A DNA stretch of 64,000 nucleotides from Phycisphaerae bacterium. GTDB lineage: Bacteria > Planctomycetota > Phycisphaerae > SM23-33. Each line of letters starts with the position of its first letter. The first letter of the stretch is position 1. The notes below the pieces were generated by a model that saw nothing but the letters and a program-made list of their open reading frames with translations, ran no database searches and had not been told where the DNA came from. Shown one piece after another: positions 32,889-56,132 of the stretch. The translations under genes and the position numbers were made by a program. The DNA is taken from positions 2,965 to 66,964 of the forward strand of contig JAWLCQ010000006.1 in NCBI GenBank assembly GCA_041687095.1, written 5' to 3'.

Positions 32889-32889
32889 T

Positions 32890-35491: not shown

Positions 35492-35923
35492 CTACCGCAG
35501 CATGTCATCGAGGCTGTCGAGGGACGCATCCTCCGGCCGCTCGTCGGAGGTCTCGGTGACCGCCCTCTCGATGGCCGACTGCCCGCGGACATTGGCGGCG
35601 GGCCTGGCGGGCTGGGAGGCGGCGGCGGCCTCGGCGGCGGCCTGTTTCTGCTTCATGGCCTCGCGGAGTTCGGCGGTCTTGGCGGCCTTGGCCGCGGCGG
35701 CCTTCTCCTCGCGCTCGACCTTTATGGCCTGCTTGGGATAGAGCGTACCATACTGGACGCACTGGGCGATGAAGCCGATCGACGTCGCCCCCACCAGGAC
35801 CACGTGCACGATGATCGCGATCATCAGGGCGTTGCCCATGCGCGAGTCGCTCACGTTCCGCATCAGTTCATCGGGGTGGATGGCGCCCGATTCCAGGTTC
35901 GGTTTGCTGTTCTTCTGTTCCAT
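35492..35923 (-). CDS. Small single-pass membrane protein with Ala/Lys/Glu-rich coiled coil (TolA domain-II-like / TonB-like without C-terminal domain)
   Basis: It has a TM segment 'ALMIAIIVHVVLVGATSIGFIA' followed by 'EREEKAAAAKAAKTAELREAMKQKQAAAEAAAA'. RBS GGAGG. It lies 61 bp after exbD-2. Confidence 0.55.
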   Translation of the reverse strand: MEQKNSKPNLESGAIHPDELMRNVSDSRMGNALMIAIIVHVVLVGATSIGFIAQCVQYGTLYPKQAIKVEREEKAAAAKAAKTAELREAMKQKQAAAEAAAASQPARPAANVRGQSAIERAVTETSDERPEDASLDSLDDMLR

Positions 35924-35984
35924 GGTTCGTCTGATTCCTCCGCCCCGGCGGGTCCGGGGGCGGGTTCCTGTCTGCAGGCGGGTG

Positions 35985-36395
35985 CTACTCTGATTCGCCG
36001 ATCTCTCCGACGAGGCTCATGTTGGCGTCGGTCTTGCTCAACGCCAGGAGGACCGGCCCGTAATCCTTCTGCTTCAGTTTCTTGTCGATCCGCACCATCA
36101 CCTCGCGCTCCTTGCGCCCCTCCAATAGGCCGCGAACGGTGCTCTCGACGATCCCCACGCTCATCTCGTCCCCGTCCACGAAGACTATGCCCTCCTCGTC
36201 GACCATCACGGACACGGGGGGCAGGGGGCTGGGCAGGCGGGCGATGTCGGGGGAGACGGGCGGCTCGCTGGTGACGTTCTTCTCCTTCATCGTCGAGGCG
36301 AGGATGAAGAAGATGATCAGCAGGAAGGCGATATCGCCCATCGAGGCGATGGGGACCATGATCCGCGGGCGCGTGCGTCGCCGGTCGAACTTCAC
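35985..36395 (-). CDS. exbD: Biopolymer transport protein ExbD/TolR
   Basis: 'IASMGDIAFLLIIFFILAST' is the ExbD TM segment, followed by a periplasmic domain. It overlaps the upstream exbD by 4 nt (ATGA). Confidence 0.85.
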   Translation of the reverse strand: MKFDRRRTRPRIMVPIASMGDIAFLLIIFFILASTMKEKNVTSEPPVSPDIARLPSPLPPVSVMVDEEGIVFVDGDEMSVGIVESTVRGLLEGRKEREVMVRIDKKLKQKDYGPVLLALSKTDANMSLVGEIGESE

Positions 36396-36868
36396 TGCCC
36401 ACCTCCGGACGACTCCGCCCCGCCGCCGCTCCCCCCGCCCTGCTGGTCCTCCCCGCGGTCGATCAGGGCCAGAACGCCCCCGGCGCGGGTGATGGCCATG
36501 GTGACCTCGTAGTAGTGCTGCCAGGACACCTCGGGGCTGCTGTCCACCACGACGACGCGGTCCTGCTCGGCCTTTTTGGGGAAGTCCTCCTGCATCAGCC
36601 GCTCGCGGAGGCTCATCATGGTCAGTTGCTCCGCCCTCTCGCCGTAGCGGATCTCCAGCCCCCCCGTCCCATCGGGCCGCAGGTTCACCGTCGGGTACTC
36701 GACCTGCTTGGACTGGTCGGGCGTGCCCGAGGGAATGGCGATCTCCTCCCCGGCGGGCTTGACCAGCTCGGTGGTGAGGATGAAGAAGATGATGAGGAGG
36801 AAGGCGACGTCGGCGAACGAGCCGACGTTGATCTCCGGATCCTCGCGATGTCTGCGGCGCATCCTCAT
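36392..36868 (-). CDS. exbD: Biopolymer transport protein ExbD/TolR (second paralogue) with Gly-rich C-terminal tail
   Basis: 'VGSFADVAFLLIIFFILTT' is the ExbD TM segment. The C-terminus is 'GGGSGGGAESSGGGQ'. Confidence 0.85.
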   Translation of the reverse strand: MRMRRRHREDPEINVGSFADVAFLLIIFFILTTELVKPAGEEIAIPSGTPDQSKQVEYPTVNLRPDGTGGLEIRYGERAEQLTMMSLRERLMQEDFPKKAEQDRVVVVDSSPEVSWQHYYEVTMAITRAGGVLALIDRGEDQQGGGSGGGAESSGGGQ

Positions 36869-36875
36869 GCGGGGA

Positions 36876-37523
36876 TCAGCCCTTCGCGGCGGCGTGTTCG
36901 AGGGTGATGAAGTCGATCAGCTCGGTGGAACTCTCCTCGATCGCGAGCCAGTAGCGGTCCACCTTGCGGGAGAAGATCGAGTGGGCGACGACGGCGGGGA
37001 TGGCGATGAGGAGCCCGGCGGCGGTGGTGATGAGGGCCTCGGCGATGCCCGCCCCCACCCCGCCGGCGTCCATGCCCATCTCGGCCATCACGGTGAAGGC
37101 CCCGATCATGCCCGTCACGGTCCCGGTCATCCCCAGCAGCGGGGAGACGGTGGCGATGAGCGTGAGGAGGTTCATCCGCTTTTCGAGGGCCTCGATGACG
37201 TGGGGGGCGTAATCGCTCATGGTGCGGGTGACGTTGCCCTCGATCTCCGCCACGGGGCGGTTGAGCTGCATGAGGCGGCGGAACTTGTGCAGCCCCACCA
37301 GCAGCACGGCCGCCACGGGCCCCTTGAACCGCTCGCACTCGGCGATGGCGTCGTCGACCTGGTTCTGCTCGAGCAGTTCGATGACGCGATAGCGCAGGGC
37401 GTTGGCGTCGATGGAGGCGATGTTGAAGGCTCGGACGCGGTCGATGATCACGGCCAGGGCGACGATCGAGCAGGCGATCAGCCCGACCATCACGTACCCG
37501 CCGTCAATGATGTACTGCAGCAT
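36876..37523 (-). CDS. exbB: MotA/TolQ/ExbB proton-channel protein
   Basis: It has three TM helices and 'GPVAAVLLVGLHKFR...GMTGTVTGMIGAF...IAEALITTAAGLLIAIPAV', the ExbB/TolQ signature. Confidence 0.85.
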   Translation of the reverse strand: MLQYIIDGGYVMVGLIACSIVALAVIIDRVRAFNIASIDANALRYRVIELLEQNQVDDAIAECERFKGPVAAVLLVGLHKFRRLMQLNRPVAEIEGNVTRTMSDYAPHVIEALEKRMNLLTLIATVSPLLGMTGTVTGMIGAFTVMAEMGMDAGGVGAGIAEALITTAAGLLIAIPAVVAHSIFSRKVDRYWLAIEESSTELIDFITLEHAAAKG

Positions 37524-37550: not shown

Positions 37551-39779
37551 TTACTCGCCGCCGCCGCTCGTCCCGAGCCTCGCGTCGATCACGTCGAGGT
37601 ACTTCTTGGCCTGGGCGGCCATCTGGGGGTACTGGCTCATGAGCTGCTCGGCCTTGTCCTTGGCCATGGCGTAGTCGCCCATGCGGTAGGCGGCCGCGAT
37701 CCACTGCAGCAGCATCTTGGGCAGGAAGGCGGCGTCCTGGTAGTCCTGGAAGACGCGCTCCATGAGTTCGACGGCCCGGGCGTAGTCCTTGGTCTCGATG
37801 TAGTACTTGGCGATCCACTCCAGCGCCTCCCCGGCGAAGGGCGAGTCGGGCCAGCTCTCGGCGCACTTGCGGTAGGCGAGCAGCGCCTTGCCCAGTTGCT
37901 GCGTCTTCTGCTGCTCCGTCTCCATCTTCGCCGCCGCCGCCTCCAGCAGCGCCCCGATATTGTACTGCGCCTCGGCCGCCAGGTCCGAATTCTGCAGCCG
38001 CGTGACCTCGGTGAAGATCCGCATGGCCTCCTCGGTCTCGCCCGCCTCCTTCTTGGCGACGGCGATCTTGAACAGGGCCTGGTCCACGAGGGACGAGTCG
38101 GGGAAGAGCTGCATGAGGGTGCGGCAGATGCCGATGGCCTCGGTGAGCTTGTCCTGCACGAGCAGCAGGTCCCACTTGACGCTGAAGGCCTCCTCGACGA
38201 CGTCGCGGTCGAGCGACGCCTTGATGTGGACGCTGATGACCTCGTCGATGCGGTCGAGGCCCTCGGCGGCCTTCTCGAAGGCCTTGCTCTTGAGCCCCAC
38301 CTCGCGGAAGATCTGCCCGAGCTTCAGGTAGATCTTGCCCTCAATGAGGTTCTTGCGGGCCTTGTCGCGGAGGCGCTCGACGACGTTCTGCTCGATCACC
38401 ACGTCCTGGATCTGCCCGATGAGGAGCTTGGCCTTGGCGGAGATCTGCCGCGGGTCGCGGCCCATCATGTGCTGCTCGTCCACGTAGGTCACGACGATGT
38501 CGTCGCCCTGCAGCGACGCCAGCATGTCGTCGCCGGTGTTGATCGCCGACTCGTCCGTCACGATCGCCGTCACGATCTTCCCGACGAACACGCCCGTGTG
38601 CGGGCCCGTCTCGACGAGGTCGATCTCCAGTTCGTCGCGGCGGCGGATCTCCTCCCTGGGCGCCTCGAGGTCCACGTTCTGCGGGGCCTGCCCGTCGGCG
38701 AACTGCCGCACCGTGTACTCCGTGTGCAGCTTCACGCGGATGCGGTCGGGCTGATCCGTCCGGTCGCGGTCGAGGTCCTTCACGCGAAGGAAGCAGTCCT
38801 TGTCGCCGTACACGCCCTTGGTGTACTCCTTGTAGGCCCCGTCGGTGAAGCCCAGGGCGGCCGTGCCGACGAGCTGGATCGTCGCCAGGATCCTCTGGTC
38901 GATCTGCCCGTCCTGCGTGTTGCGGTCGGTGAAGACGACCTCGACCTGGTCGGCCCCGACGAACTGCAGGATCCCATCGCCCTTCTTCGGGGCGCCGAGT
39001 TCCGTGCGGATCGAGCCGATGTAGTGCTCCCCGGAGCGGCCCAGGGGCTCCAGGGTGATGACCTCCTCGTCGCCCGTCGCGGCGCGGAGGGCCACCTGGA
39101 TGGCCTCGCCCTTGGCGGCGAGGACGACGAAGTCCTTGTCGAAGACCTTCACGTAGAGGCGTTGCCCGGCCTCGGCGTAGGTCATGGACTTCTGGTTGGG
39201 CGGGACGCTGGTCCCGACCATCTCCAGGGCCTCGATGGCCTTGGTCCATCGCCCGAGCTTGAAGTGGCACTGGCCGATGTAGTAGTAGGCCTCGTTGGCG
39301 TAGACGCTCCAGGGGTAGTCGTTGGTGACCTTCCGGAAGCTCATGAAGGCGTTGTCGAGGCGGTCGAGCATGAAGTAGCAGATGCCGAGCTGGTAGAGGG
39401 CCTCGGCCTGCTCTTCGGGGTCCTCGCTCTCCTCGACGTTCCGCAGGGCGCGGATGGCGAGGGGGAAGTTGTTCTCCTTGAGGTGCTGCTTGCCCAGCAC
39501 CAGGTGCGCCTTGAAGCGGGCCTTGCTCTTGGGGTACATCTGCGGGACGCTCTGCAAGAGCTTCACGCCTCGCTCCGTCTGCCCGGACTCCAGCAGCTCC
39601 AGGCCGCGGTCGAGCATGGTCTTGGCCTTGTACTCCGTGCGGGCGTCGTCGTCGCCCTCCTCGGCCGCGGGCGCCTGCCCGAACACCGCGCCCCCCGCCG
39701 GCAGCCCAAGGAGGCAGGCGACGAGGACCGCCCCCGCCGCGTACATCCGCCACATCCTGTCCATCTTGCTGTCTGTCAT
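37551..39779 (-). CDS. Secreted TPR-repeat protein (742 aa) with internal beta-sandwich-like modules shared with the giant protein
   Basis: It has a signal peptide 'MWRMYAAGAVLVACLLGLPAGGAVFG'. There are multiple TPR units at both ends. The central modules include 'ITLEPLGRSGEHYIGSI' and 'VDLVETGPHTGVFVGKIV'. Confidence 0.8.
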   Translation of the reverse strand: MTDSKMDRMWRMYAAGAVLVACLLGLPAGGAVFGQAPAAEEGDDDARTEYKAKTMLDRGLELLESGQTERGVKLLQSVPQMYPKSKARFKAHLVLGKQHLKENNFPLAIRALRNVEESEDPEEQAEALYQLGICYFMLDRLDNAFMSFRKVTNDYPWSVYANEAYYYIGQCHFKLGRWTKAIEALEMVGTSVPPNQKSMTYAEAGQRLYVKVFDKDFVVLAAKGEAIQVALRAATGDEEVITLEPLGRSGEHYIGSIRTELGAPKKGDGILQFVGADQVEVVFTDRNTQDGQIDQRILATIQLVGTAALGFTDGAYKEYTKGVYGDKDCFLRVKDLDRDRTDQPDRIRVKLHTEYTVRQFADGQAPQNVDLEAPREEIRRRDELEIDLVETGPHTGVFVGKIVTAIVTDESAINTGDDMLASLQGDDIVVTYVDEQHMMGRDPRQISAKAKLLIGQIQDVVIEQNVVERLRDKARKNLIEGKIYLKLGQIFREVGLKSKAFEKAAEGLDRIDEVISVHIKASLDRDVVEEAFSVKWDLLLVQDKLTEAIGICRTLMQLFPDSSLVDQALFKIAVAKKEAGETEEAMRIFTEVTRLQNSDLAAEAQYNIGALLEAAAAKMETEQQKTQQLGKALLAYRKCAESWPDSPFAGEALEWIAKYYIETKDYARAVELMERVFQDYQDAAFLPKMLLQWIAAAYRMGDYAMAKDKAEQLMSQYPQMAAQAKKYLDVIDARLGTSGGGE

Positions 39780-39848
39780 GGATTCACCCTTGCTCGATCC
39801 GCTGTACTGCCGAGTTCCGTGTCGCTCGGCCGCCTGTCAAACGGTGTG

Positions 39849-41450
39849 CTAGAATTCCTCGTCCGTCTCCCGCAGCCCGGTGTCGACGCCGTACTTCTCG
39901 AGCAACTGGTGCGCCCGCGACGACTCCTGAGACTTGGGGTATACCTTCATGATCCGCCGCGCCATGGCGACGGCGGTCTTGTCCTCGCCCGCCTGGTGCA
40001 TGTACCACGCCTGCTGCCAGGCGGCCCGCGAGGCGTCGGGCGGGAACATCGTCTCGATCTCCTGGAGGGTCCGCATGGCCTCGTCGACCTTCTTCATGCG
40101 GTACTGGCAGTCCTGGATGGCCCAGAGCGTGCCCGGAGGCTTTCCGATCGTGCGGTAGAGCTTGATCGCCTCCTCGTAGCGGCCCATGTAGTGGTGGTAG
40201 AGGTGCGCCCTCGCCGCCAGCGCCCGCGAGGCGTAGGCCTCGTCGCCCATCTTCTCGATGCCCTGGAGCTGCTTGTCGCACTCCGCCCACTTCTCCTGCC
40301 GCGCGTGCAGTTCGTACACCTTCCACGCGGCGAGGACGCGGTTCTTCATGTACCCGATGACCACCTGGGCCAGCTCGAACTCGCGGTTGGCGACCATGCG
40401 GTCGACGACCCAGTTCCACTTCGCGTCGCGCGCCTCGTCGCCCGCGATGGCCTTGACGATCTTGACGATCTCGTCGACGGCCTTCTGCACCCCGGCCTTG
40501 TCGCCCGTCCCGCGGGCGAGGTCCCAGTAGTGGATGTGGTACGTCCACAGGTCGTCCGTCTGCTTGTACCACTCGACGCGGGACTTGAAGTACTCGAAGA
40601 ACGCCTTGCGGTCCTCGACCCGCCGCTCGGGCGTGGCGATCTCCCCGAGCTTCAGCGGGTGGCGGTCGATGCGAGAGAGGACCTCCAGGGCGTACTCGAC
40701 GACGGCCTTGCGGTGCTTGGCGTTGTCGCGCGCGTCGGGGTTGACCAGCCACTCATCCATGGCGCTGCAGTTCTGCTGGTTGATGTACCAGGCGGTGACG
40801 GAGTCCTTGGCGGATCGGGCCTCGTCGCGGTTGGCGGAGGCGAAGTCGGCGACGACCTGCTTCCAGTAGTGCACCGCCACGTCGTACTCGCCGGTCTTCC
40901 ACTTGTGGTCGGCGAGGGTGCGGACGGCCCCGGCGGCGAGCCAGTGCTTGCGGTACTCCTCGTGGTCGGCCATCGCCTTCATGACGGCGAGGCCCTTGGC
41001 GGTGTCCCCGTTGTCGAAGTGGGCCTGGCCCATGAAGTACAGGGCGGGGGCGGCGTCGGGGACGTCGTGGGCGAAGTAGTCCAGCACCTCCTGGTAGAGC
41101 TTGATGGCGGTGTGGCGGTTCTTCGCGTAGTGCTGCGAGTACGCCTCCATGAACAGCACGTGGGGCACGACGGGCGAGTCGGGGAACTGGACGCGGTACT
41201 TGTTGAACTCCGTCGCCGCCGACTCGAACACCTTGGGCTGCCGCTGCTTCTCGGCCCCTCGGAACAGGTTCAGGGCCTTGTCGTACTGGGCGCGTTCGAA
41301 CATCGTCAGCGCCTTGTACCGCTCGGCGCTGAGGGAGGGGGTCCACGTCTGGGCGTGGAGCGTCCCCGCGAGCAGGGCCACGGCGAGAATCGCCGCGGGC
41401 CAGGCCCGATGAAACGTACTGCTGTTCGCTCGCTCCCTGGGGGTGCTCAT
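39849..41450 (-). CDS. Secreted TPR-repeat protein (533 aa)
   Basis: It has a signal peptide 'AAILAVALLAGTLHAQ' and TPR-like helical repeats throughout. It lies 5 bp after the giant gene. The antisense ORF 37896-41471 is spurious. Confidence 0.8.
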   Translation of the reverse strand: MSTPRERANSSTFHRAWPAAILAVALLAGTLHAQTWTPSLSAERYKALTMFERAQYDKALNLFRGAEKQRQPKVFESAATEFNKYRVQFPDSPVVPHVLFMEAYSQHYAKNRHTAIKLYQEVLDYFAHDVPDAAPALYFMGQAHFDNGDTAKGLAVMKAMADHEEYRKHWLAAGAVRTLADHKWKTGEYDVAVHYWKQVVADFASANRDEARSAKDSVTAWYINQQNCSAMDEWLVNPDARDNAKHRKAVVEYALEVLSRIDRHPLKLGEIATPERRVEDRKAFFEYFKSRVEWYKQTDDLWTYHIHYWDLARGTGDKAGVQKAVDEIVKIVKAIAGDEARDAKWNWVVDRMVANREFELAQVVIGYMKNRVLAAWKVYELHARQEKWAECDKQLQGIEKMGDEAYASRALAARAHLYHHYMGRYEEAIKLYRTIGKPPGTLWAIQDCQYRMKKVDEAMRTLQEIETMFPPDASRAAWQQAWYMHQAGEDKTAVAMARRIMKVYPKSQESSRAHQLLEKYGVDTGLRETDEEF

Positions 41451-41454
41451 AGGG

Positions 41455-44400
41455 CTACTCCATTTCGCTGAAGGCCCGCTCCGTCAGGCGGCCGCGGGCG
41501 ATCTTCGCCCACTTGTCCTCCGGGTAGTCCCAGGTGAGCTTCTTGAACGACTGGTAGGCGAACTGGTAGTTGCGGGCGTTGAAGTACGACTCGCCCAGCC
41601 AGTACATCGCCTCGGGACGGATCTCGCGGTCGTCCGGATAGGTCTCGACGAGCAGCGCGAACCGCTCCGCCGCCGTCTTGAAGTCGTTCATCTTGTAGAA
41701 GCACTGCCCGCTGAGGAACAGCGCCCGCGACGCCAGCTTGTGCTGCGGGTTGCGGTCCTGGAACTTGAAGAACACCTCGCCGGCCGTGTCGTAGCGGCCG
41801 CGCTTGTAGTAGTAGTTGCCCAGCCGCACGACCGCGTTGGCCACCAGGGGGCTCTCGGGGTAGATGTACGTGAGCTTCACGTACTCCTCGCAGGCGGCGT
41901 CGTAGTTCTCGAGGGACTCGTAGCAGATGGCCTTCTGGAGCTGCGAGCGGGAGGCGTACTCGCTGGCGCCCCAGGTGGTGATGACGTTGGCGTAGCGGGC
42001 GATGGCCTCGTCGAAGTTGGCCAGTTCCTGCGCCAGGTTCGCCAGCAGGTACTCGCCCTGCGAGGCGAGGGTGGTGTTGGGGTAGTCCGCCAGGGCCTCC
42101 TCGAGGATCCGCTTGCCCTGGGCCAGTTCCTCGGACGCCAGGTCCTCCTTGCCCAGCTTGCGGTGCTCCTTGGCGACCTCGAAGAGGGCCTCGGCCATCA
42201 GGAAGCGGGTCTTGACCGCCATCTCGGGGTCGGTGAAGAGCTTGGTGAAGACGGCGACCTCGGCGTTGGCCCCGAAGAAGATCGAGCCCGTCCCCTCGAC
42301 GGTCCGCTCGGCGTCGCTGGCGAGGCTGATCCTGTCGACGTAGGTGAACGTCACCTGGTCGCCGAACCCGACGCTCAGGACGTCGTCCTTCGGGTCGAGC
42401 CGCTCCTTCTTCTCCCCGACGTACACGGGCTCGAACGAGCCGGTGAACACGCCCGAGTGCGGGAGCGTCTCGCTCAGCGTGAGCGTCAACTGATCGCCCA
42501 CCCCACTCCTGGCCACGACGGTCAGCTCGTCCCGCGCGTCGGAGACGTCGCTGTCCGGGTCCGTCACCTGCACGAAGAACTTCTCGCCCAGGTGGATCGC
42601 GTTCTTGACGATCGTGTACGACGGGTCGAGCAGTTCCAGCCGCCCGTCCGACAGCAGCCGGATCGAGCGCGTGTGCCGCTCCTTGGTGATCGCGTCCTCG
42701 ACCGTCACGTGCACCACGTCGGACCCGCACACCACGAGGGTGGCGATCTTCTTCAGCTCGTCCTCGGTCCGCGGGACCAGCCCGTCGGTGGTGACGATCA
42801 CGTCGTCGACCTCGTCCCCGGGCGAACCCATCTGCAGGCGGATGACGCCCGCGAAGGTCCCGGCGGAGAGCATGCTCTCGGCGTCGGCGCGGAAGTGCGA
42901 CTGCACCCGCACGTCGTAGCCCTTGGCCCGCGCGAGCCCGTCGGCGGTCCCGATGGAGAGCGGGACGGCGACGATGCGGGCCTCGCGGTTTTCCTCCCGG
43001 GCGGCGTCGAGTTCGGACTGGGCGACGGCGGTCGCGGCCCAGTGGGACCCGGCGTGCAGGGCGAGCGTCGGGTAGTTCACCTCGAAGAGGATCGGGGCGA
43101 TGACGCTGCAGCGGATCGGGTCCTCCGGCGTCCCGGCGGGCTGGGGGGCGGGGGCGGCGGACTTGCCCTGCGGGGAGTACTCCGGGTGCGTCGCGATCAC
43201 GACGTCCTTGAAGACCACCGGGTCCTCGGGGAGGGCGAGCTTCTGCTTGATCCGTTCGGCCTTGCGGGCGGCCTCGTCGCTCGTGTCCTTCTCCTGGGTC
43301 ACCGACGTGCGGTAGACCAGCGGGCGCGGGGTGGCCTGCCCGGCCTCCATGACCTCGTACTCGCGCTGGATCGGGACGCCCGGGGCGGTGTTTTCCTTAT
43401 CCAGGTACGCCACCTTGATGATGTCATCCTGGCGGACCTTGATCTGGTCCCCGCCCGTCTGCTCGCCCGTCCGCAGGACGGCCATGAACGTGCCCGCGTG
43501 GTTGTGCTGCCCGTGCTGCCCCGTCTCCAGGGCCTTGAGCACCAGCCGCTCGCCGCTGCCGGTCGTCACCTCGATCTCCACCACGTCGCGTTCGTCCGTG
43601 AGGTCCAGGTCGTAGTCGACCACGCGGATCATGAGCTGGTCGCCCACGCGGAACCGCTTGGCGGGGTGGAAGATCGACTGCTTGGTCCTCTCGTCGATGT
43701 CCTCGTACGCCAGCTCGATCTCGCCGTTGTAGTACGACGCCTTGAGCGTGCTCGTCAGCTCCGGGGAGCCCACGGAGACGCGCTTCTCGTCCACGTACGT
43801 GACGGTGATGGTGTCCCCGGGGGCGATCTCCAGCGAGTCGTTGGTCCGCCCGGCGGTGAAGTCCTTCTCCACGGGGACGACGGGGCGGCCGTGGCTGTCG
43901 AGGATGGCGATCTCGCTGGCCTCGACGGCGTTGCCGGTGAAGTCCTCGAACACCCACTGCACCTTGCGGAGGCGGGTGGGCTCGGCGAGGACGGCGGTGA
44001 ACCCGTCGTCCGTCATCGTGATCTTGCCCTTGGGCTTGAGGTACTCCGCGAGGCCGGGGTTGGCCGCGACGCTGAACCACTCGGCGGGCAGCGGGGCGAA
44101 CGTGCCGTCATCCTTCATGTACCCCACCACCGCCTGCGACTTGGCGTGCTGGTCGGCGACGAGGACCTCCAGCCTGTGCGCGCCCTTGGCGAGGAACACG
44201 CGGCGGGTCCAGCCGATCGTGTCCTTGGTCATGTTCCCGCCCAGGTACATCTGGCCGTCGATCAGCAGGAACGCATGCTGCCAGTTGTGCGGGCTCAGGG
44301 GCTGGACGAACTTGAACTCGACCGCCTGGTCCTCCGGGAGCCAGAACACCCCGCTCATCTGGCTGACCATCCAGCCCTGGCGGTCCTTGTAGTCGGTGGC

Positions 44401-47400
44401 GGAGCGGTCGAACGCCGCCGCCTCCTGCCACCGCGCCTTGCCGCCCCGCAGGGCGATCTGCTTGCGCATGTCGTCCACGCTGCCGGCGTTGACGTTGTAG
44501 GCGGAGGCGACCGTCAGCCCGCCCTTCTGCTGCTCGGACCGTTCGGGGAAGGCGGCCAACTCCTCGTAGTCGCCCGCCAGCATCCCCAGCAGGGCGACCG
44601 AGCGGACCTGGCCGGGGCTCGTCATCTTGATCGACACCTGCTGCATCTCGTGCGAACTCATGGTGTCGACTTCGATGCTCTTGGGCTTCTTGCCGTCCGA
44701 CAGCGAGGACCACGACTCCTTGCGGGTCGAGTTGATCAGCACCGACGGGTCCAGCCCCTCCGCCGTGTCCGACGCCGACGCCTTCGGCAGGGGGATGCCC
44801 GTGGGCACCTGCGCCCGGAACATGGCGCTGTGGGGCTCGGTCTCGGTGAGTTCAAACGACTCGATCACGTCCCCGCTCGACGTCGCGATCCGCACGGTGA
44901 CCTTGTCCTTGCCCATGCTCACGTCGCGGTCGGGGTCGAGCACCTGCACGTACACCGGGCTGCCCGGGCGGACCGTGGTGCCCGACCGCAGCACGTCGAA
45001 GCGGCGGGAGGTTTCCTGGGCCTGGGCGGCGGCCATCTTGCGCTCCAGCGCCCGCTGCTCCTGCTCCTCGCGGGAGAGGATCTCGCCCGAACTCACCGCC
45101 AGCGAACCGTCGGCCTTCACCTCCAGGTTCTTGGGGGGGTAGTTGATCTCGTTGGCCTTCTGGTACTCGGGATCGATGCGGTAGCTGATCACGTCCTCGC
45201 CCAGGATCTCCAGGTTCATGTTCCCCGGGGCGGGCTGGCCGAGCGACGTGGTGATGCTGGCGGTGAACTCGTACTTGTCCGCGGAGCTGGGCAGGAGCTT
45301 GACGTGCTCCTCATCCTTCCCGACGGACGTGCGGACGACCACCGGGACCGCCGCGCCCCCGCGGGCGATGGCGAGGTTGGTGTCGCGGAGCTTCATGGTG
45401 AGCACGCGACCCGGGACGAGGATCGTCCGCAGGCGGGCCTGGCCGATGCGGACCTCGGTGTGCTGCAGCCCGCCCGGGAGGCGGAGGTGCAGCTCGCCCT
45501 CGAGGAAGGCGGCCTCGACGTGGTCGGGGACGCGGTCGAAGACCTTCCTCACGTACTCGTACGCCTCCTTGTACTCCTCCTGGAGGAAGGACATCTTGGC
45601 GTAGAGGTAGTAGGCTTCGGCCTGGACGCGGACGTCCTCATGGTCGACGAGGCGTTCGAGGATCTCATCGGCCGCCCCGTAGTCGGCCATCGTGACGAAC
45701 AGGTCGATCATCGAGTACAGGGCCCTCTGCCCCGCCTGCGTCTTGCTGTAGCGGGGGTTGGAGCGGAGGGACTGGTACTCGAGCTTGGCGGCCTGGAAGT
45801 TCTCCATGGCGCGGTAAATATTGCCCTTGGCGAGGAGGAGGCGGGCGGCGAGTTCGTCGGGGAGGTCCTGCTCGCGGAGCAGGACGGTCATCGCCAGGTC
45901 CAGGGCCTCCTTGAGGCGCTTCTGGGCGGCGAGCTGCTCGATGCACCAGGCGACGTAGTCGGGGTCCAGCGACTCCCAGGCCTTGGGCAGCATGCCGATC
46001 TTGGCCTCGGTGAGTTCCCACGCGCGGACCTCGTTGCCGAAGCTCAACGCCTGGGCGGCCATGTGCAGGTCGTACGTCGGGTCATCGGTGCGGACGGCGA
46101 TGAGGCCGGTGATGGCGCGGGCGGCGCGGGACTTGACGACGGCCATCTGCTTGCGGGCTTTGTCGGGCACGGCGTGCATGCGGTCGAGGGCGGTGATGAA
46201 CGCGAAGGCCATCTCGGACGCCCGGGCCTGCTCCAGCGTGCTGCACAGCGGCTCGATCCGCGAGCGGAGGTTGTAGTCCCAGTCGCCGTGGTCCGGCAGG
46301 TGGCGGGCGTAGGACGGGATGAGCGTGGCGAGGGAGGCCCAGTCGGCCTGGCGGGCGGCGTCGGCGGCGGCGACCTCCAGGGCGTAGACGCGGTGATGCG
46401 GGGCCCCGGAGTACGACGCCCCCGCGGCCAGTGCCTCGGCGAGGGTGCGGCAGAGCTGCATGCCCTGCGCGTTCATGCCCTTCCAGCCCTCGTCGCCCGT
46501 GGTGGCGTACCAGCGGGCGGTGTCGAAGAGCTGCTGGTGCAGCGTCACCCCCGCGAACCCCTCCTGCGCCACCTGCTCCAGCAGCGGGGGGAGGAGTTGG
46601 AACAGCATGTGGTTGCGCTTGCCGCTCTCGTACTGGCCCGCCGCCTCGCGGGCGGGGCCGTCGTGGTAGGCGATCACGCTGCAGGACTCGATCTGCGCCC
46701 GGGCGGGCCGCTTGGACACCAGGTTGCCCAGGTAGGCCTCGTAGAACTTCTGGGCCGCCTCCCCGTGCCCGGAGCGGCGGAGCATGCCGTACACCAGCCC
46801 CTCCGACCAGACGCTGTAGTCCTTCGTGCGGTCGGCGTCGGCGAGGTAGAAGGCCCAGATCGCCTCGGCCGACTTGGGGGAGAGCTTGCGGTCGGACGCG
46901 GCGAGGTTGTAGAGGTTGCTCAGCCAACTGTACGCGCCGGCCGAGGACGAGAAGGCGAACCCCTTCGTCCCCATCAGCACGCCGATCTCGTCGGCCCACT
47001 TCTGCTGGTTGTCGCGGTCGTTGCTCGCCTGGTTGTAGAGGTAGGCCAACGCCCGCTCCCAGCCCATCCTGTCGTAGACGGGGGCGAAGACGCTCTGGGG
47101 GTCCTCCTTGGGATTGCGAGCACTGGCCAGTTCCTGCCAGACCCGCTCATCCCCGGCCGACTTGGCCGCCTGGACCTGCTGGACGTAGTGCTTGGCGAGG
47201 GTGTAGAGCAGCCCGCTGTTGCCCAGTTCGCGGACGCGGCGAGCGGTGCCCTCCCAGTCCGCCCCCAGGCCCATCCGGGGCGCCCAGGTTTCGGCCATCG
47301 CGTAGAACCCGTCGCGGTCGTTCCACATGACCCCGCGGTGACGGGAGTAGATGCGGTACAGCACCCACTCAGGGGCGTCCTTGGGCCCGTCGCCCGCGAA

Positions 47401-49290
47401 GAGCGTGCCCTTGGCCTGGGCGAGGATCTTGGCGACGTCCTCGGGGGCCTTCTTGCGGTGCTTGGCGGCGTCCCAGCTCTCGTGGGCCTCGACGCACAGG
47501 ACCAGCAGCGGGTCGGAGCCCTTGGCGGTCTTGGCGAAGGCCTGCAGGGCCTCGAAGTCCTTCGTGCCCCCGAAGTTCTTGCGGTCGCCGTTGAGTTCGT
47601 TCAGCAGATCCTTCATGGCCTTCGACAGCCCGGCCTTGGCGATGGCGTCCTTCAGGAGGCCCAGGCGAACGGGCATGTCGAGCAGCGGGGAGTACATGAA
47701 GTCGGAGCGGAGCCTGTTGCGGTCGAAGCTGTCGGGGTAGCAGGTCAGGTAGTCGCGGGCGGTGGCGAGGAGGGGTTCCCCGAGCTTCTTGGCGAGGGGA
47801 GCGAAGGCGGCCTCGGCGGCTTTGAGTTCGGCCCCGGCGCCCTGCAGGGCCTTCTGGGCCTCGGCGAGGGCGTTCTTCTCCTTGTCCCCGGCCTTATCGC
47901 TCTTGGCGGCCTTCTGGGCGGTGTCGAAGCGGGCCTGGGCGTTGTCGGCCTTGGTGCGGGCGTCGGCGACGGCCTTGTAGGCGTCCTGGGCGAGGCGGTT
48001 GTACCAGTCCATGACGGCGACGCGGTAGCTCAGGACGGTCCCGAAGTGCTGGCCCTTGCTGACGGCGGCGAGCTGCTTGTCGAGTTCCTTGCCCTCGGTG
48101 AGCTGCACCCAGTCGCGGAGGTCGTCGGTGCTCATCGCGTCGGGGTGCCTGGCGAGGAAGGCGATGCGGACGGGGGCGTCCTTGAGGTACGCCGTCTGGA
48201 TGCTGCGCAGGCGGGGCTGCAGGGTGCGGGGGCTGTCGGCGTATTTGGCCTTGAGGGCGTCGAACTTCTTCTGGATGTCCGCGTCGCTGACCAGTTCCTG
48301 GCCCTCGACGTGGAAGACCGGGGCGTTTTCGGTGATGACGGAGACGAAGCGGTAGTAGTCCCCGCGGTCTTTGGAGTCGGCGTAGAGCTTCTCGTGGGCG
48401 AGGAACTTCTTGGCCAGGTCGAGCTTGGCGGCATCGGGGGCGACGTCCTTGAGCAGCGCGAACTGCCCGACGAGGTAGTCCGGGAGCGGAGCGGCGGCGA
48501 CCTGCTGGATCTCCAGCAGCAGCGCGATCAGCTCGGGCTTGGGCAGGGTGTCGTCGGCGGCTTGGTAGACGCGCCACAGGGCCTCGTAGTCGGAGGGGCG
48601 GCCCTTGGCCATGACGCGGAGGGTGGCGACGTAGCGTTCCTCGGGGGAGCGGCCGAGGGCGGCGGTTCCGGCGGCGTCGGCGAGGCGGCGGTGCACGTGG
48701 TGGACGCGTGCGGGGGCGGGGAACGTCTCGATGAGGAGGGCGGCGACGCGGCGGGACTGGTCGCCCCCGAGCCCGTCGAGCAGGCGGTCGAGGGTGGCGG
48801 TTCCGAGGGACCAGGCGGCATCGGTGGGCCCGTAGAGGGCGATGTACTTCTGGAGGACGTCGGGATGGGCCCCCTCGCGCAGCAGGTAGTGCATGGCCTG
48901 GCGGAGTTCGGGCGTCGCCTTGGGCTGGTTCTGGACGTAGTAGAGGTACTTGCCCAGGGCGTCGCGGTACTCGGCGGCTTGGGCGGCGAGGGTGGCGGCC
49001 TGGTACACCAGGGCCAGGTCCTTCCCGCCGGCGGCATCGAGGAGGGCGTTGGCCCGCTGGTAGGCGGTGACGTAGCGCCCATCGGCGACGGCGGCCTGGA
49101 GGGAAAGCTCCAGGGCCTCCTTCGGGGGGGCCTTCTGGGTCAGCAGCTTGTCCAGGGCCGCGTCGACCTGGCCGAACTTCTTCTCCTGGATCAGTTTCTG
49201 TGCATCCTCGATGGGCCCGCCGAATACGGCATCAGACGCCCACGCACCCAGGAGCAGCATCGCCAGACAGGCAGTTGCGAACTTTCTCAT
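41455..49290 (-). CDS. Giant secreted protein (2611 aa): N-terminal alpha-helical/TPR-like region, central array of Asp-rich beta-sandwich-like modules, C-terminal TPR domain
   Basis: It has a signal peptide 'MRKFATACLAMLLLGAWASDAVFG' and RBS AAGGTGA. Repeated modules read 'VQVLDPDRDV...TETEPHSAMFRAQV', 'IRVVDYDLDLTDERDVVEIEV...LETGQH...GTFMAV' and 'VQVTDPDSDVSDARDELTVV...LSETLPHSGVFTGSF'. The C-terminal TPRs include 'YKRGRYDTAGEVFFKF...'. GC3 is high throughout. The antisense ORF 41443-49530 is spurious. Confidence 0.8.
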   Translation of the reverse strand: MRKFATACLAMLLLGAWASDAVFGGPIEDAQKLIQEKKFGQVDAALDKLLTQKAPPKEALELSLQAAVADGRYVTAYQRANALLDAAGGKDLALVYQAATLAAQAAEYRDALGKYLYYVQNQPKATPELRQAMHYLLREGAHPDVLQKYIALYGPTDAAWSLGTATLDRLLDGLGGDQSRRVAALLIETFPAPARVHHVHRRLADAAGTAALGRSPEERYVATLRVMAKGRPSDYEALWRVYQAADDTLPKPELIALLLEIQQVAAAPLPDYLVGQFALLKDVAPDAAKLDLAKKFLAHEKLYADSKDRGDYYRFVSVITENAPVFHVEGQELVSDADIQKKFDALKAKYADSPRTLQPRLRSIQTAYLKDAPVRIAFLARHPDAMSTDDLRDWVQLTEGKELDKQLAAVSKGQHFGTVLSYRVAVMDWYNRLAQDAYKAVADARTKADNAQARFDTAQKAAKSDKAGDKEKNALAEAQKALQGAGAELKAAEAAFAPLAKKLGEPLLATARDYLTCYPDSFDRNRLRSDFMYSPLLDMPVRLGLLKDAIAKAGLSKAMKDLLNELNGDRKNFGGTKDFEALQAFAKTAKGSDPLLVLCVEAHESWDAAKHRKKAPEDVAKILAQAKGTLFAGDGPKDAPEWVLYRIYSRHRGVMWNDRDGFYAMAETWAPRMGLGADWEGTARRVRELGNSGLLYTLAKHYVQQVQAAKSAGDERVWQELASARNPKEDPQSVFAPVYDRMGWERALAYLYNQASNDRDNQQKWADEIGVLMGTKGFAFSSSAGAYSWLSNLYNLAASDRKLSPKSAEAIWAFYLADADRTKDYSVWSEGLVYGMLRRSGHGEAAQKFYEAYLGNLVSKRPARAQIESCSVIAYHDGPAREAAGQYESGKRNHMLFQLLPPLLEQVAQEGFAGVTLHQQLFDTARWYATTGDEGWKGMNAQGMQLCRTLAEALAAGASYSGAPHHRVYALEVAAADAARQADWASLATLIPSYARHLPDHGDWDYNLRSRIEPLCSTLEQARASEMAFAFITALDRMHAVPDKARKQMAVVKSRAARAITGLIAVRTDDPTYDLHMAAQALSFGNEVRAWELTEAKIGMLPKAWESLDPDYVAWCIEQLAAQKRLKEALDLAMTVLLREQDLPDELAARLLLAKGNIYRAMENFQAAKLEYQSLRSNPRYSKTQAGQRALYSMIDLFVTMADYGAADEILERLVDHEDVRVQAEAYYLYAKMSFLQEEYKEAYEYVRKVFDRVPDHVEAAFLEGELHLRLPGGLQHTEVRIGQARLRTILVPGRVLTMKLRDTNLAIARGGAAVPVVVRTSVGKDEEHVKLLPSSADKYEFTASITTSLGQPAPGNMNLEILGEDVISYRIDPEYQKANEINYPPKNLEVKADGSLAVSSGEILSREEQEQRALERKMAAAQAQETSRRFDVLRSGTTVRPGSPVYVQVLDPDRDVSMGKDKVTVRIATSSGDVIESFELTETEPHSAMFRAQVPTGIPLPKASASDTAEGLDPSVLINSTRKESWSSLSDGKKPKSIEVDTMSSHEMQQVSIKMTSPGQVRSVALLGMLAGDYEELAAFPERSEQQKGGLTVASAYNVNAGSVDDMRKQIALRGGKARWQEAAAFDRSATDYKDRQGWMVSQMSGVFWLPEDQAVEFKFVQPLSPHNWQHAFLLIDGQMYLGGNMTKDTIGWTRRVFLAKGAHRLEVLVADQHAKSQAVVGYMKDDGTFAPLPAEWFSVAANPGLAEYLKPKGKITMTDDGFTAVLAEPTRLRKVQWVFEDFTGNAVEASEIAILDSHGRPVVPVEKDFTAGRTNDSLEIAPGDTITVTYVDEKRVSVGSPELTSTLKASYYNGEIELAYEDIDERTKQSIFHPAKRFRVGDQLMIRVVDYDLDLTDERDVVEIEVTTGSGERLVLKALETGQHGQHNHAGTFMAVLRTGEQTGGDQIKVRQDDIIKVAYLDKENTAPGVPIQREYEVMEAGQATPRPLVYRTSVTQEKDTSDEAARKAERIKQKLALPEDPVVFKDVVIATHPEYSPQGKSAAPAPQPAGTPEDPIRCSVIAPILFEVNYPTLALHAGSHWAATAVAQSELDAAREENREARIVAVPLSIGTADGLARAKGYDVRVQSHFRADAESMLSAGTFAGVIRLQMGSPGDEVDDVIVTTDGLVPRTEDELKKIATLVVCGSDVVHVTVEDAITKERHTRSIRLLSDGRLELLDPSYTIVKNAIHLGEKFFVQVTDPDSDVSDARDELTVVARSGVGDQLTLTLSETLPHSGVFTGSFEPVYVGEKKERLDPKDDVLSVGFGDQVTFTYVDRISLASDAERTVEGTGSIFFGANAEVAVFTKLFTDPEMAVKTRFLMAEALFEVAKEHRKLGKEDLASEELAQGKRILEEALADYPNTTLASQGEYLLANLAQELANFDEAIARYANVITTWGASEYASRSQLQKAICYESLENYDAACEEYVKLTYIYPESPLVANAVVRLGNYYYKRGRYDTAGEVFFKFQDRNPQHKLASRALFLSGQCFYKMNDFKTAAERFALLVETYPDDREIRPEAMYWLGESYFNARNYQFAYQSFKKLTWDYPEDKWAKIARGRLTERAFSEME

Positions 49291-49660
49291 GACTCGCTCA
49301 CCTTTTCTCGTTCCGGACCGTCCGTTTTACTTGGATCGGGAGAGTCTTCCAGTATGGCACAAACCCGCCCGCGTTCGTGCGGGCATTTGCCTTCCGTTGT
49401 CCTTAGGTTCAACCGCAAGCACCCGCCAGGGTTCCGAACCCAGGGAACCGCTTCTCCAAGTCCCGGGCTCCCCGGTCCCGGCCCCACAGGGCCGCACCGG
49501 ACGCAACGGGACCAACACGTCCCCCTATGAACCCCGCGGGCTGGACAAGGTTGCGTGAATTCCCGAGGCGCCTTTCCCCGCATGGGGTTTGACATCCGCA
49601 TCCCAAACGGGTACCAACCCTTCGACACACTCCGCAGATGGACCGAAAGGAACCGCAGAC

Positions 49661-50632
49661 ATGGCCGACTCCCGCATCCCCACCACACGCATCGCCCCCT
49701 CCCCCCGCCCGCACGGCGTCCTGGCCTTGGGCTGCTGGCAGTTCGGGGCCGACTACTGGGCCCACCAGTCCGACCCCGACTCCCTCGCCGCCATGGCCGC
49801 CGCCCTCGATGCGGGCATGAACCACTTCGACACCGCCGAAGGGTACGGCCGCGAGGCGCACTCGGAGAAGCTCGTCGGGCAGTTCCTCCAGGGCAAGCGT
49901 GATCGTGTGTTCCTGGCGACCAAGCTGTTCCCCAACGAACTCGACCCCGCCGCCACCCTCCGCAAGGTCGACGCCTCCCGCCAGCGCCTGGGCGTGGACG
50001 TGGTGGACCTGTTCTACATCCATTGGCCGCGGCAGGGGCAGGACATCCGCCCCGTCATGGAGGGCCTGGAGACCGCCCGCCAACAGGGCAAGATCCACGC
50101 CATCGGGGTCAGCAACTTCTCCGTCGCCGACATGGAGCAGGCCTCCGAGGCCGGGCGCATCGACGCCCACCAGCTCTGCTACAACCTCTTCTGGCGGGTC
50201 CACGAGACGGACGTCATCCCCTGGTGCAACGCCCACAACATCGCCGTCGTCACCTACAGCTCCATCGCCCAGGGCGTCCTCACCGGCAAGTTCCCCCGCG
50301 AGGTCTCCTTCCCCGAGGGCGACGGGCGGAAGAAGATCGCCTACTTCCGCGAGGGCGTCTGGCCGCACGTGCATGCGGGCGTCGAGCAGCTCAAGGCCCT
50401 CGCCACCGAACTGAACCGCCCCCTGGTGGACCTGGCCATCCGCTGGGTCGTCCAGCGCCCGGACATCGACGAGGTCATCGTCGGATCCCGCAACGCCGGG
50501 CAGGTGGCGGCCAACGCCGCCGCCTTCGACGGCGAAATCCCTCAGAGCGCTCTGGACCGGATGACCGCCATCAGCGACGATGTCATCCGGCGCCTCCCGC
50601 AGGACGACAACCTGTGGGGGTTCCATCCGTAG
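49661..50632 (+). CDS. Aldo/keto reductase family oxidoreductase
   Basis: It has 'GCWQFG', 'FDTAEGYGREAHSEKLVGQ', 'IGVSNF' and 'NRPLVDLAIRWV'. It starts at the ATG at 49661, with AAAGG upstream. Confidence 0.85.
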   Translation: MADSRIPTTRIAPSPRPHGVLALGCWQFGADYWAHQSDPDSLAAMAAALDAGMNHFDTAEGYGREAHSEKLVGQFLQGKRDRVFLATKLFPNELDPAATLRKVDASRQRLGVDVVDLFYIHWPRQGQDIRPVMEGLETARQQGKIHAIGVSNFSVADMEQASEAGRIDAHQLCYNLFWRVHETDVIPWCNAHNIAVVTYSSIAQGVLTGKFPREVSFPEGDGRKKIAYFREGVWPHVHAGVEQLKALATELNRPLVDLAIRWVVQRPDIDEVIVGSRNAGQVAANAAAFDGEIPQSALDRMTAISDDVIRRLPQDDNLWGFHP

Positions 50633-50650
50633 GCCGCTTTCACGCCTTCG

Positions 50651-50885
50651 CAAACAGCGGCGAAGGCGTGAAGAGTGAGACTGCGTCGCAAGTGCTGTGG
50701 AGTGCGGTGCTTCAGCACCGCTTTGCACCCACGCGCATGTGTCCTGTGGAAGATTCCTCCGCACACCGAGCTTTGAAAACCTGTCAACGGCAGAGCCCCT
50801 GTCCATGAGACCGTTCAGCAGAGTCGGGCGTTCGCACTTGATCGACGTCCAGCGGAAAGCGGTGCTGAAGCACCGCACTCCATAG
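50651..50885. repeat. Structured noncoding element: hairpin CACGCCTTCGC..GCGAAGGCGTG (50651-50683) plus a 23-bp IR pair GGAGTGCGGTGCTTCAGCACCGC (50700-50722) / GCGGTGCTGAAGCACCGCACTCC (50860-50882)
   Basis: It is read directly from the sequence. Each IR arm is itself palindromic. The first hairpin is a near-copy of 3491-3525. Confidence 0.5.
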
Positions 50886-50992
50886 GGATTGCCTCCAAGT
50901 CCCGCGCACGCGCACGCAAAGCACGGTATACTGCTCTCCCCCTCCGGCGGCGATGTCCCCCCGCCCGAGGGGCAATCGATAAGGAGACGCAC

Positions 50993-56048: not shown

Positions 56049-56132
56049 CCTTAGCCTCAGGGTGCGTCTGACTGTCGAAGAAAACAACTCACGCGGGTGC
56101 ATCCCGGCGTTTACAGACGGTTTCAGAACTCA

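Follow-up and report, generated by a model that had tools for sequence, protein, structure and literature searches.

Gene organization of the locus

The window, i.e., the whole 64,000-nucleotide stretch of DNA that was analyzed, contains an eight-gene operon encoding a giant protein (G), a 533-aa TPR protein (M), a second TPR protein (T), an ExbB/TolQ protein, two ExbD/TolR proteins, a TolA-like stub and a DUF4159 protein (Table 1). G starts with a signal peptide, followed by a ≈1150-aa helical N-terminal region, TPRs, an array of beta modules (residues ≈1289–2330) and a C-terminal YbgF-like TPR block; only TPR families were detected in it by Pfam. Signal peptides were judged by eye. An identical copy of G is present in the public collection (P0189), and G homologs are found as P0005–P0019. 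T has at least 200 orthologs, named there only as "TPR" or "TolA-binding protein". The string "LVAC" would make T a lipoprotein, a reading that was rejected since this Cys is not kept in the ortholog consensus. M sits between G and T in related loci as well.

Several other open reading frames were discarded. The plus-strand ORF at 41443..49530 is a shadow ORF of G, and a 179-aa ORF at 35863..36402 is in the wrong frame and overlaps the true second ExbD gene at 35985..36395. Two minus-strand ORFs of 1067 and 1219 aa, which had no Pfam matches, were also treated as shadow ORFs; the latter is overlapped by plus-strand genes with Pfam matches.

Table 1. Genes, modules and other features of the operon, with positions in the window and residue numbers in the encoded proteins.
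Feature	Position	Strand	Description and evidence
Gene G	41455..49290	-	2611-aa exported protein; translation
Module G1 (G aa 1289–1385)	45136..45426	-	A-type, acidic cluster mostly lost; HMM A domain E 9.9e-33; hhalign T1~G1 98.7%; AF2 strands
Module G2, N-terminal part (G aa 1440–1507)	44770..44973	-	Strands with DPDRD and ETEPHSAMF; HMM B positions 2–68, E 3.8e-13
Insertion within G2 (G aa 1508–1812)	43855..44769	-	Nested, ≈305 aa, all-beta
Module G2, C-terminal part (G aa 1813–1843)	43762..43854	-	Closing strands, GDTITVTYVDEKR; HMM B positions 67–97, E 0.0018
Module G3 (G aa 1880–1974)	43369..43653	-	B-type; HMM B E 1.5e-24
G3b (G aa 2055–2220)	42631..43128	-	Possible degenerate fifth beta domain; AF2: strands and three helices
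Module G4 (G aa 2232–2328)	42307..42597	-	B-type; HMM B E 3.2e-28; hhalign T2~G4 99.4%
G C-terminal TPR block (aa 2493–2601)	41488..41814	-	YbgF/CpoB-like; TIGR02795 89.5 bits (cut-off 90.1); Pfam TPR_6, YfiO
Gene M	39849..41450	-	533-aa exported all-TPR protein, no beta module (Pfam, module HMMs)
Gene T	37551..39779	-	742-aa exported protein; TPR, module T1, module T2, TPR
Module T1 (T aa 200–296)	38892..39182	-	A-type; HMM A E 1.9e-36; AF2 pLDDT ≈93–97
Module T2 (T aa 322–444)	38448..38816	-	B-type with 30-aa hairpin extension; HMM B E 9.9e-30; AF2; alignment A4
T C-terminal TPR block (aa 618–725)	37605..37928	-	YbgF/CpoB-like; TIGR02795 (tol_pal_ybgF) 104.7 bits, above cut-off 90.1
MotA/TolQ/ExbB-family proton channel	36876..37523	-	215 aa; PF01618, E 2.7e-27
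ExbD/TolR 1	36392..36868	-	158 aa; PF02472, E 6.3e-14
ExbD/TolR 2	35985..36395	-	136 aa; PF02472, E 5.7e-13; kept in 64/68 loci
143-aa protein	35492..35923	-	One TM helix with His ("IIVHVVLV"), then Ala/Lys/Glu-rich segment; after ExbD2 in 48 loci
DUF4159 protein	33784..35466	-	560-aa membrane protein with C-terminal DUF4159, final operon gene; PF13709, E 7e-31; kept in related loci

An acidic Ig-like module shared by G and T

The original prediction described an Asp-rich motif occurring at least four times in the giant protein and twice in the TPR protein. All the motif strings quoted there were found on the minus strand in G and T, and the counts were borne out, with four modules detectable by sequence in G (G1, the split G2, G3 and G4), plus one possible degenerate copy, and two in T. 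The motif marks an acidic Ig-like beta-sandwich domain of ≈95 residues, common to both proteins, with the signature hxVxDxDx[DN]x[ST]xxx[DE]xhxV ... LxLxET..H[ST]GxFxG ... GDxhxVxYxD. The full signature is present in G2, G3, G4 and T2 and a partial one in T1 and G1; the corresponding strings are VYVQVLDPDRDV...LTETEPHSAMFRAQV in G2 (residues 1446–1499), FFVQVTDPDSDVSDARDELTVV...LSETLPHSGVFTGSF in G4 (residues 2238–2290), ITLEPLGRSGEHYIGSI in T1 and IDLVETGPHTGVFVGKIV in T2. The element GDxhxVxYxD, which closes each module, is a third conserved part that was absent from the earlier description. Read from the sequences, the first Asp and the Glu of "ET" lie 30–31 residues apart in G1, G2, G3, G4 and T1, rather than the ≈25 residues originally estimated, and T2 has a 30-aa hairpin insertion at this point.

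When the window's 610 six-frame ORFs (106 kaa) were searched with module HMMs built solely from homologs in other genomes, G and T alone were matched, with domain E-values of 1e-13 to 1e-36. When module profiles were compared by hhalign, the probabilities were 95–99.6%, including 98.7% for T1 and G1, 99.4% for T2 and G4, 99.0% for T2 and G2, 99.4% for G2 and G3, 99.6% for G2 and G4, and 99.5% for G3 and G4, over ≈71–92 aligned columns each. With the insertion removed from G2, the alignments crossed the junction at 99.0–99.6%. The AF2 structure predictions yielded confident beta sandwiches: the model of T residues 186–470 (pLDDT 90.5, pTM 0.84) has two sandwiches with one strand pattern, and in the G module array (pLDDT 80.7) each module repeats this pattern. 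In these models, the T and G modules are predicted to be all-beta sandwiches of ≈90–100 residues.

The original prediction had named as the alternative to homology a likeness of composition only, lacking consistent spacing or secondary structure. The genome has a GC content of 68%, and the B-type modules are somewhat Asp-rich (10–13% Asp against a background of ≈7%, a moderate enrichment), but a purely compositional likeness arising from an Asp-rich, high-GC coding bias is refuted by the hhalign probabilities and the specificity of the other-genome HMMs, is equally at odds with the fixed spacing and the common strand pattern in confident AF2 models, and can for practical purposes be discounted. 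The profile alignments indicate that the similarity is positional, not compositional.

Two parts of the G array stand apart. G3b was not significant as a module by sequence (hhalign 2–29%). The G2 insertion probably consists of CBM32/F5-8C-like and PA14-like jelly rolls; a phmmer search of it against PDB sequences gave no match, and Pfam searches of the insertion, G3b and the N-terminal 1150 residues of G retrieved nothing beyond TPR families or noise.

Old paralogy of T with part of G

Comparison of the two proteins suggests strongly that T is an old paralog of the C-terminal half of G, both being built on one common plan, consisting of a signal peptide, a TPR block, one A-type module, at least one B-type module and a YbgF/CpoB-like TPR block. 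Beyond this plan, G has extra B modules, one B module harboring the nested jelly-roll insertion. The A-type-then-B-type order is found in 58 of 65 T orthologs and 48 of 51 G orthologs across the PVC phyla. Since this order is fixed, the paralogy is old and not the product of a recent shuffle. Of the two origins originally proposed, common ancestry is upheld by the hhalign and HMM evidence that the T and G modules are homologous, while recent domain shuffling between the neighboring genes does not agree with the conserved module order. Outside the modules, the N-terminal TPR block of T matched G with an E-value of 1e-6, a weak TPR likeness when taken alone, and the C-terminal TPR block of T had no BLAST match in G. 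For this reason, the paralogy was rested on the modules and the common plan, and a claim of full-length collinear homology was dropped.

The module belongs to a widespread S-layer family

The profile of the module alignment (A4) matched the Nitrosopumilus maritimus S-layer protein NmSLP (Nmar_1547; PDB 8c8k) with an E-value of 7.9e-16, and the motif is present in several of the NmSLP Ig domains. The NCBIfam model of the anammox S-layer protein Kustd1514 (NF052345) matched G residues 1814–1965 (E 4.8e-9) and T (E 0.0057), and reached E-values of 1e-46 to 1e-76 on the tandem-array proteins. Taken together, these profile matches indicate that the module family is also the repeat unit of NmSLP, Kustd1514 and giant tandem-array surface proteins, the last of which bear SLH, IPTL-CTERM or FG-GAP domains. 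The module is carried by 3293 cluster representatives, which come from Archaea, Actinomycetota, Clostridia and PVC. The analysis delimits a widespread domain for which a representative has been solved and no Pfam model exists, and shows that S-layer-type modules occur within TPR proteins too.

The architectures differ, however. The archaeal, extracellular NmSLP has ten tandem Ig domains arranged in a hexagonal lattice (PDB 8c8k/8c8l/8c8m; PMC11153153) and, unlike T and G, has neither TPR blocks nor a motor operon. The Kustd1514 family of anammox Planctomycetes has a repeat unit equal to the T/G module, and differs in architecture and operon; with 34 bits against a cut-off of 1400 on NF052345, G and T have the domain of this family but fall outside it. 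Nor do they have the long, surface-exported tandem array of an S-layer protein, having 2 (T) and 4–5 (G) modules flanked by TPRs.

Membership in the Calx-beta, Big, CARDB or cadherin families, as originally suggested, did not hold. Calx-beta (PF03160), cadherin, Big and CARDB domains resemble the module as general Ig-like beta-sandwiches with acidic loops, but Pfam gave no match to them, either for the proteins (E ≤ 0.1) or for 36 isolated modules (E ≤ 1), the latter yielding nothing beyond TPR families or noise, and no PDB chain of Calx-beta, cadherin, Big_1–9 or CARDB was retrieved at E ≤ 10. In fold comparisons of the tandem array, macroglobulin (MG) domains of alpha-2-macroglobulin and complement made up the second-ranking group of matches. 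That the modules are MG domains and G an alpha-2-macroglobulin-like protease trap is very improbable, as the CGEQ thioester motif is absent, no A2M Pfam family was found in G or T, and the MG matches were far weaker than those to NmSLP, which alone was found by sequence.

Conserved acidic residues form a candidate Ca2+ site

The family-wide consensus of 905 module instances agrees with the module signature, and identifies the acidic positions D14, D16, [ND]18, [DE]24 and E44 as family hallmarks conserved at 79–96%, the full set of hallmark positions ranging over 79–97%. The acidic positions resemble a DxDxD-type loop. In G1, D16, D18, D24 and E44 have been lost together, and D14 and D88 are retained; this pattern fits a single common site. 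The NmSLP lattices disintegrate in EGTA (PMC11153153). The conserved acidic loop probably holds Ca2+, judging from these residue patterns, and we regard it as a candidate site. Alternatively, the acidic residues might serve for charge or packing.

The operon is conserved and resembles a PVC motor cluster

The operon is kept in 68 loci in Planctomycetota, Lentisphaeria, Verrucomicrobiota and Kiritimatiellia. Its 143-aa product had no Pfam match and looks like a TolA/TonB stub. For DUF4159, only the Pfam paper was found in the literature.

The Tol-Pal TPR protein CpoB/YbgF is, like T and G, encoded beside TolQ/TolR-like genes. CpoB, of ≈260 residues, combines a coiled coil with TPRs and lacks Ig modules, whereas T and G have beta modules lying between two TPR blocks. 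On TIGR02795, T scored above and G marginally below the cut-off (104.7 and 89.5 bits against 90.1), a match at the level of the domain only. CpoB is encoded in the tolQRAB-pal cluster, whereas the present operon has one TolQ-like and two TolR-like genes and no Pfam match to TolB or Pal/OmpA among the operon genes scanned.

A closer likeness is found in section 8 of PMC12204202 (Mol Biol Evol 2025), which describes "an uncharacterized TPR gene" in PVC bacteria, upstream of tolQ-like genes, paired genes of the tolR-like kind and a novel force transducer, and states that deletion phenotypes have so far not been reported. [quoted passage not shown] We infer that the DUF4159 protein, which fits the "force transducer", is the "vWA" transducer of that cluster. 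Ig modules, the giant paralog G and the 533-aa TPR gene go unmentioned in the same section. The present results supply the missing anatomy of the TPR gene in this newly noticed cluster, and add G and the 533-aa TPR protein as two further conserved members. An analogous gene order is found in Fibrobacter succinogenes FSU_2396–2403 (OmpA, two TPR proteins, ExbB, two ExbD, TonB; PMC6851124), where large exported TPR proteins are likewise followed by ExbB, ExbD, ExbD and a transducer.

A proposed role as a periplasmic spacer

The explanation that we favor, and consider moderately probable as a whole, is that T and G are old TPR paralogs carrying S-layer-type Ig modules, which serve as a rigid periplasmic spacer of the motor operon. 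Most likely, the role of the modules is that of a rigid spacer, probably stiffened by Ca2+, in a presumed periplasmic location. In such a mechanism, T and G would both be exported to the periplasm, where the Ig modules, probably with Ca2+ in the acidic loop, would form a stiff spacer that holds two TPR docking platforms a set distance apart. Of the two TPR ends, the CpoB-like one would dock on the transducer, either the TolA-like or the DUF4159 protein, of the TolQR/ExbBD-type proton motor encoded alongside, and the opposite one would contact outer-envelope partners.

A point against the periplasmic location is that the module is extracellular in every characterized relative, including NmSLP, Kustd1514 (as modeled by NF052345) and the SLH- or IPTL-CTERM-bearing arrays. 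G and T could accordingly be located on the cell surface, where Ca2+-binding Ig-like modules would build a fiber, adhesin or S-layer-like coat, with the TPR blocks as mere anchors. The occurrence of the family in S-layer proteins and in giant arrays with SLH, IPTL-CTERM or FG-GAP domains speaks for this arrangement, as do the probable CBM32- and PA14-like lectin folds in G, which are typical of adhesins. We consider it unlikely, however, because there are just 4–5 modules in G and 2 in T, always between TPR blocks of the BamD/YbgF type, which are periplasmic families; no SLH, surface-sorting or anchoring domain was found in G or T by Pfam or NCBIfam; and the coupling of the genes to TolQ/TolR-like genes is tight and universal. 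The fiber or adhesin of the original prediction therefore suits the wider family, with its S-layers and giant tandem arrays, but not T and G, which are TPR-flanked, YbgF/BamD-like and encoded in a TolQR/ExbBD operon.

A second alternative, which we find equally doubtful, is a glycan-handling machine, in which the lectin-like insertion of G would bind peptidoglycan or imported polysaccharide, the motor would move or tension this substrate, and the Ig modules would be linkers. The hosts are PVC lineages, which are mostly polysaccharide degraders. In addition, cellulose brings about up-regulation of the TPR-TPR-ExbB-ExbD-ExbD-TonB cluster in Fibrobacter (PMC6851124). On the other hand, the insertion had no sequence match to any CBM, either by Pfam or by phmmer against PDB sequences, and T has no insertion at all.

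The periplasmic spacer may be taken one step further, to a speculative scenario to which we give little weight: PVC bacteria, some of which have no recognizable TolA/TonB, would have taken an archaeal/anammox S-layer building block into the periplasm. TPR-capped, Ca2+-stiffened Ig struts, i.e., T and G with its lectin-like insert, would then be the stator or strut of an undescribed proton-driven trans-envelope machine that tensions the outer membrane or handles glycans, either replacing Tol-Pal functionally or serving as an alternative to it. Handles on the role of the motor are provided by the acidic loop, the CpoB-like TPR end and the lectin-like insert.

A shared module in T and G

The strings that the original prediction had quoted as evidence of an Asp-rich module common to the 742-aa protein (T) and the giant 2611-aa protein (G) were all present. 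The module, an Ig-like β-sandwich of ≈95 residues, occurs twice in T (T1, T2) and four times in G (G1–G4), each copy having three conserved elements a constant distance apart: h-x-V-x-D-x-D-x-D-x-[ST]-x3-D-x-h-x-V, L-x-L-x-E-T-x2-H-[ST]-G-x-F-x-G, and G-D-x-h-x-V-x-Y-x-D, which had not been listed. The second element does lie downstream of the Asp element, but begins 30–31 residues past the first Asp rather than ≈25.

BLASTP aligned T 205–286 with G 2235–2320 (33% identity, E 1.4e-4) and gave two longer collinear matches, T 52–423 with G 1154–1517 (E 6e-11) and T 249–718 with G 2142–2552 (E 5e-15). Module profiles excised from orthologue alignments A2 (16 sequences) and A3 (120) were compared by hhalign over ≈80–90 columns per pair, yielding 98.7% for T1–G1, 96.9% for T1–G4, 99.4% for T2–G4, 99.0% for T2–G2, 99.4% for G2–G3, 99.6% for G2–G4 and 99.5% for G3–G4. 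When module HMMs built without the window sequences were run against the window's 610 six-frame ORFs, G and T were the sole matches. A purely compositional likeness, the outcome named beforehand as fatal to homology, is excluded by these profile and HMM matches.

Two subtypes could be distinguished: the acidic set is reduced in the A-type (T1, G1) and complete in the B-type (T2, G2, G3, G4). G2 is split, with HMM positions 2–68 at G residues 1440–1507, positions 67–97 at residues 1813–1843, and ≈305 residues nested in between; with this insertion taken out, its profile aligned through the junction by hhalign. In a further β domain, G3b (G residues 2055–2220), sequence profile comparison does not detect the module.

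Fold and family of the module

AlphaFold2, using the 120-sequence alignment, modeled T residues 186–470 (pLDDT 90.5, pTM 0.84) as two β-sandwiches that share their strand order; immediately past the DxDxD strand comes a short helical turn. The G array (residues 1281–2342) was modeled as nearly all β, with a pLDDT of 80.7.

Pfam contained no family for the module, whether searched with whole proteins or 36 isolated modules, and in proteins with 5–20 copies found FG-GAP, IPTL-CTERM and SLH but no module family, leaving the suggested Calx-beta likeness unsupported. The Ig-like assignment was correct: by sequence alone, the A4 module profile matched a single solved structure, the Nitrosopumilus maritimus S-layer protein (NmSLP, PDB 8c8k; E 7.9e-16), in which several Ig-like domains carry all three elements, and NmSLP was also the top structural match to the G model (Foldseek E 1.4e-22). 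The NCBIfam Kustd1514 S-layer glycoprotein model (anammox) matched G (E 4.8e-9), T (E 0.0057) and module-array proteins (E 1e-46 to 1e-76), in all cases partially and far under the family cut-off.

An exhaustive profile search found 3293 cluster representatives, of which 494 reached E≤1e-30; the copy number rises to 43 in one protein of 7180 aa. Named carriers come from Actinomycetota and Clostridia MAGs, where they are annotated as "Ig-like domain-containing" or "S-layer homology domain-containing". The consensus of 905 instances is G..LYVRVTDADLNTSPAADTVTVTVTSSTGDTETVTLTETGPNTGVFTGSIPTT..GDGTLQV.AGDTITVTY.D, with conservation at positions 14 (D 96%), 16 (D 81%, N 12%), 18 (N 56%, D 32%), 24 (D 50%, E 29%), 44 (E 96%), 52 (F 97%), 86 (Y 87%) and 88 (D 85%). 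The module is a real, well-defined domain family that has a solved representative but lacks a Pfam entry, and both its architectural and its genomic setting here are new.

Predicted Ca2+ binding by the module is plausible, because its loop follows a DxDx[DN] pattern, because G1 jointly lacks D16, D18, D24 and E44 yet keeps D14 and D88, and because the NmSLP lattice is sensitive to EGTA (PMC11153153). The cation densities in that study could not be assigned.

The operon and its conservation

The module genes belong to an eight-gene minus-strand operon, in which G is the first gene, since a divergent plus-strand aldo/keto reductase and GH65 gene lie upstream. As read from the sequence, G, M (a neighboring TPR protein) and T all begin with a stretch resembling a signal peptide.

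Features of the operon and surrounding reading frames
Feature	Position	Strand	Remarks
G	41455..49290	-	2611 aa
G N-terminal region	45841..49290	-	aa 1-1150
M	39849..41450	-	533 aa, TPR throughout
T	37551..39779	-	742 aa
MotA/TolQ/ExbB	36876..37523	-	
ExbD 1	36392..36868	-	
ExbD 2	35985..36395	-	second ExbD/TolR, 136 aa; PF02472 E 5.7e-13
143-aa protein	35492..35923	-	one His-bearing TM helix ("MIAIIVHVVLV"), then Ala/Lys/Glu-rich segment
DUF4159 protein	33784..35466	-	560 aa, multi-TM, DUF4159 at C-terminal end
179-aa ORF	35863..36402	-	rejected
1067-aa ORF	30030..33233	-	rejected
2695-aa ORF	41443..49530	+	rejected
1219-aa ORF	49409..53068	-	rejected
Aldo/keto reductase, GH65 glycoside hydrolase or phosphorylase, FtsK	49589..53224; 53526..56102	+; -	upstream of G
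Prepilin-motif protein	28757..29875	+	372 aa
997-aa ORF	29895..32888	+	

The two ExbD proteins differ from one another; the Arg-rich 179-aa ORF is in the wrong frame, the true gene there being ExbD 2. The 143-aa protein, which directly follows ExbD 2 in 48 of 68 related loci, had no Pfam match and no globular domain after its Ala/Lys/Glu-rich stretch, and looks like a TolA/TonB stub. In the 560-aa protein, a final His-containing TM helix ("ATFLHVAAV") leads through a Pro/Lys linker into the DUF4159 domain, an arrangement that makes it a candidate for the new "vWA force transducer" described in a 2025 survey on force transducers of the periplasm (PMC12204202). That survey covers the operon's neighborhood in PVC bacteria; its account of the cluster mentions neither the Ig modules nor G or M.

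Orthologues of T number at least 200 and are labeled only "TPR" or "TolA-binding protein"; G homologues occur in Planctomycetota, Lentisphaeria, Verrucomicrobiota, Kiritimatiellia and Rhodothermales. Across 68 loci of the PVC phyla the genes keep the order G-M-T-ExbB-ExbD-ExbD-(143 aa)-DUF4159. The modules run A B in 58 of 65 T orthologues, and A B B B, or a form of it in which the second module is split, in 48 of 51 G orthologues. T and G therefore go back to an ancient duplication of a TPR-A-B-TPR plan, which later expanded in G, and not to recent exchange between neighbors; common ancestry, one of the two origins first suggested, stands. Against the Tol-Pal YbgF/CpoB model, which has a curated cut-off of 90.1 bits, the C-terminal TPR block of T scored above the threshold at 104.7 bits, and that of G reached 89.5 bits. 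Residues 1–1150 of G appeared helical by eye, gave only noise in Pfam at E≤5, and were weakly conserved across PVC homologues (tblastn 50–490 bits).

Possible roles of T and G

An alpha-2-macroglobulin-like role for the modules lacks the thioester motif. Incorporation of T and G into a surface fiber or S-layer would agree with the module's role elsewhere, but is a poor match for proteins flanked by TPR blocks, low in module copies and encoded in a motor operon. We favor a model in which T and G are exported and, in each, a stiff S-layer-type Ig array would space apart two TPR platforms. A TolQR-like motor would drive a transducer, either the TolA-like stub or the DUF4159 protein, for which the CpoB-like end of T or G is a natural candidate binder, and the opposite end, together with the long helical N-region of G, may bind other envelope partners.

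Surrounding reading frames

The window has a GC content of ≈68% and many shadow ORFs. Three further long ORFs were rejected as such: the 2695-aa ORF, antisense to G; the 1067-aa ORF, with no Pfam match; and the 1219-aa ORF, also with no Pfam match and overlapped by real plus-strand genes. The aldo/keto reductase, GH65 and FtsK neighbors appear to have no relation to the operon. Convergent with it are the 997-aa ORF, with no Pfam match, and next to it the 372-aa protein, which carries a prepilin N-terminal methylation motif (PF07963).
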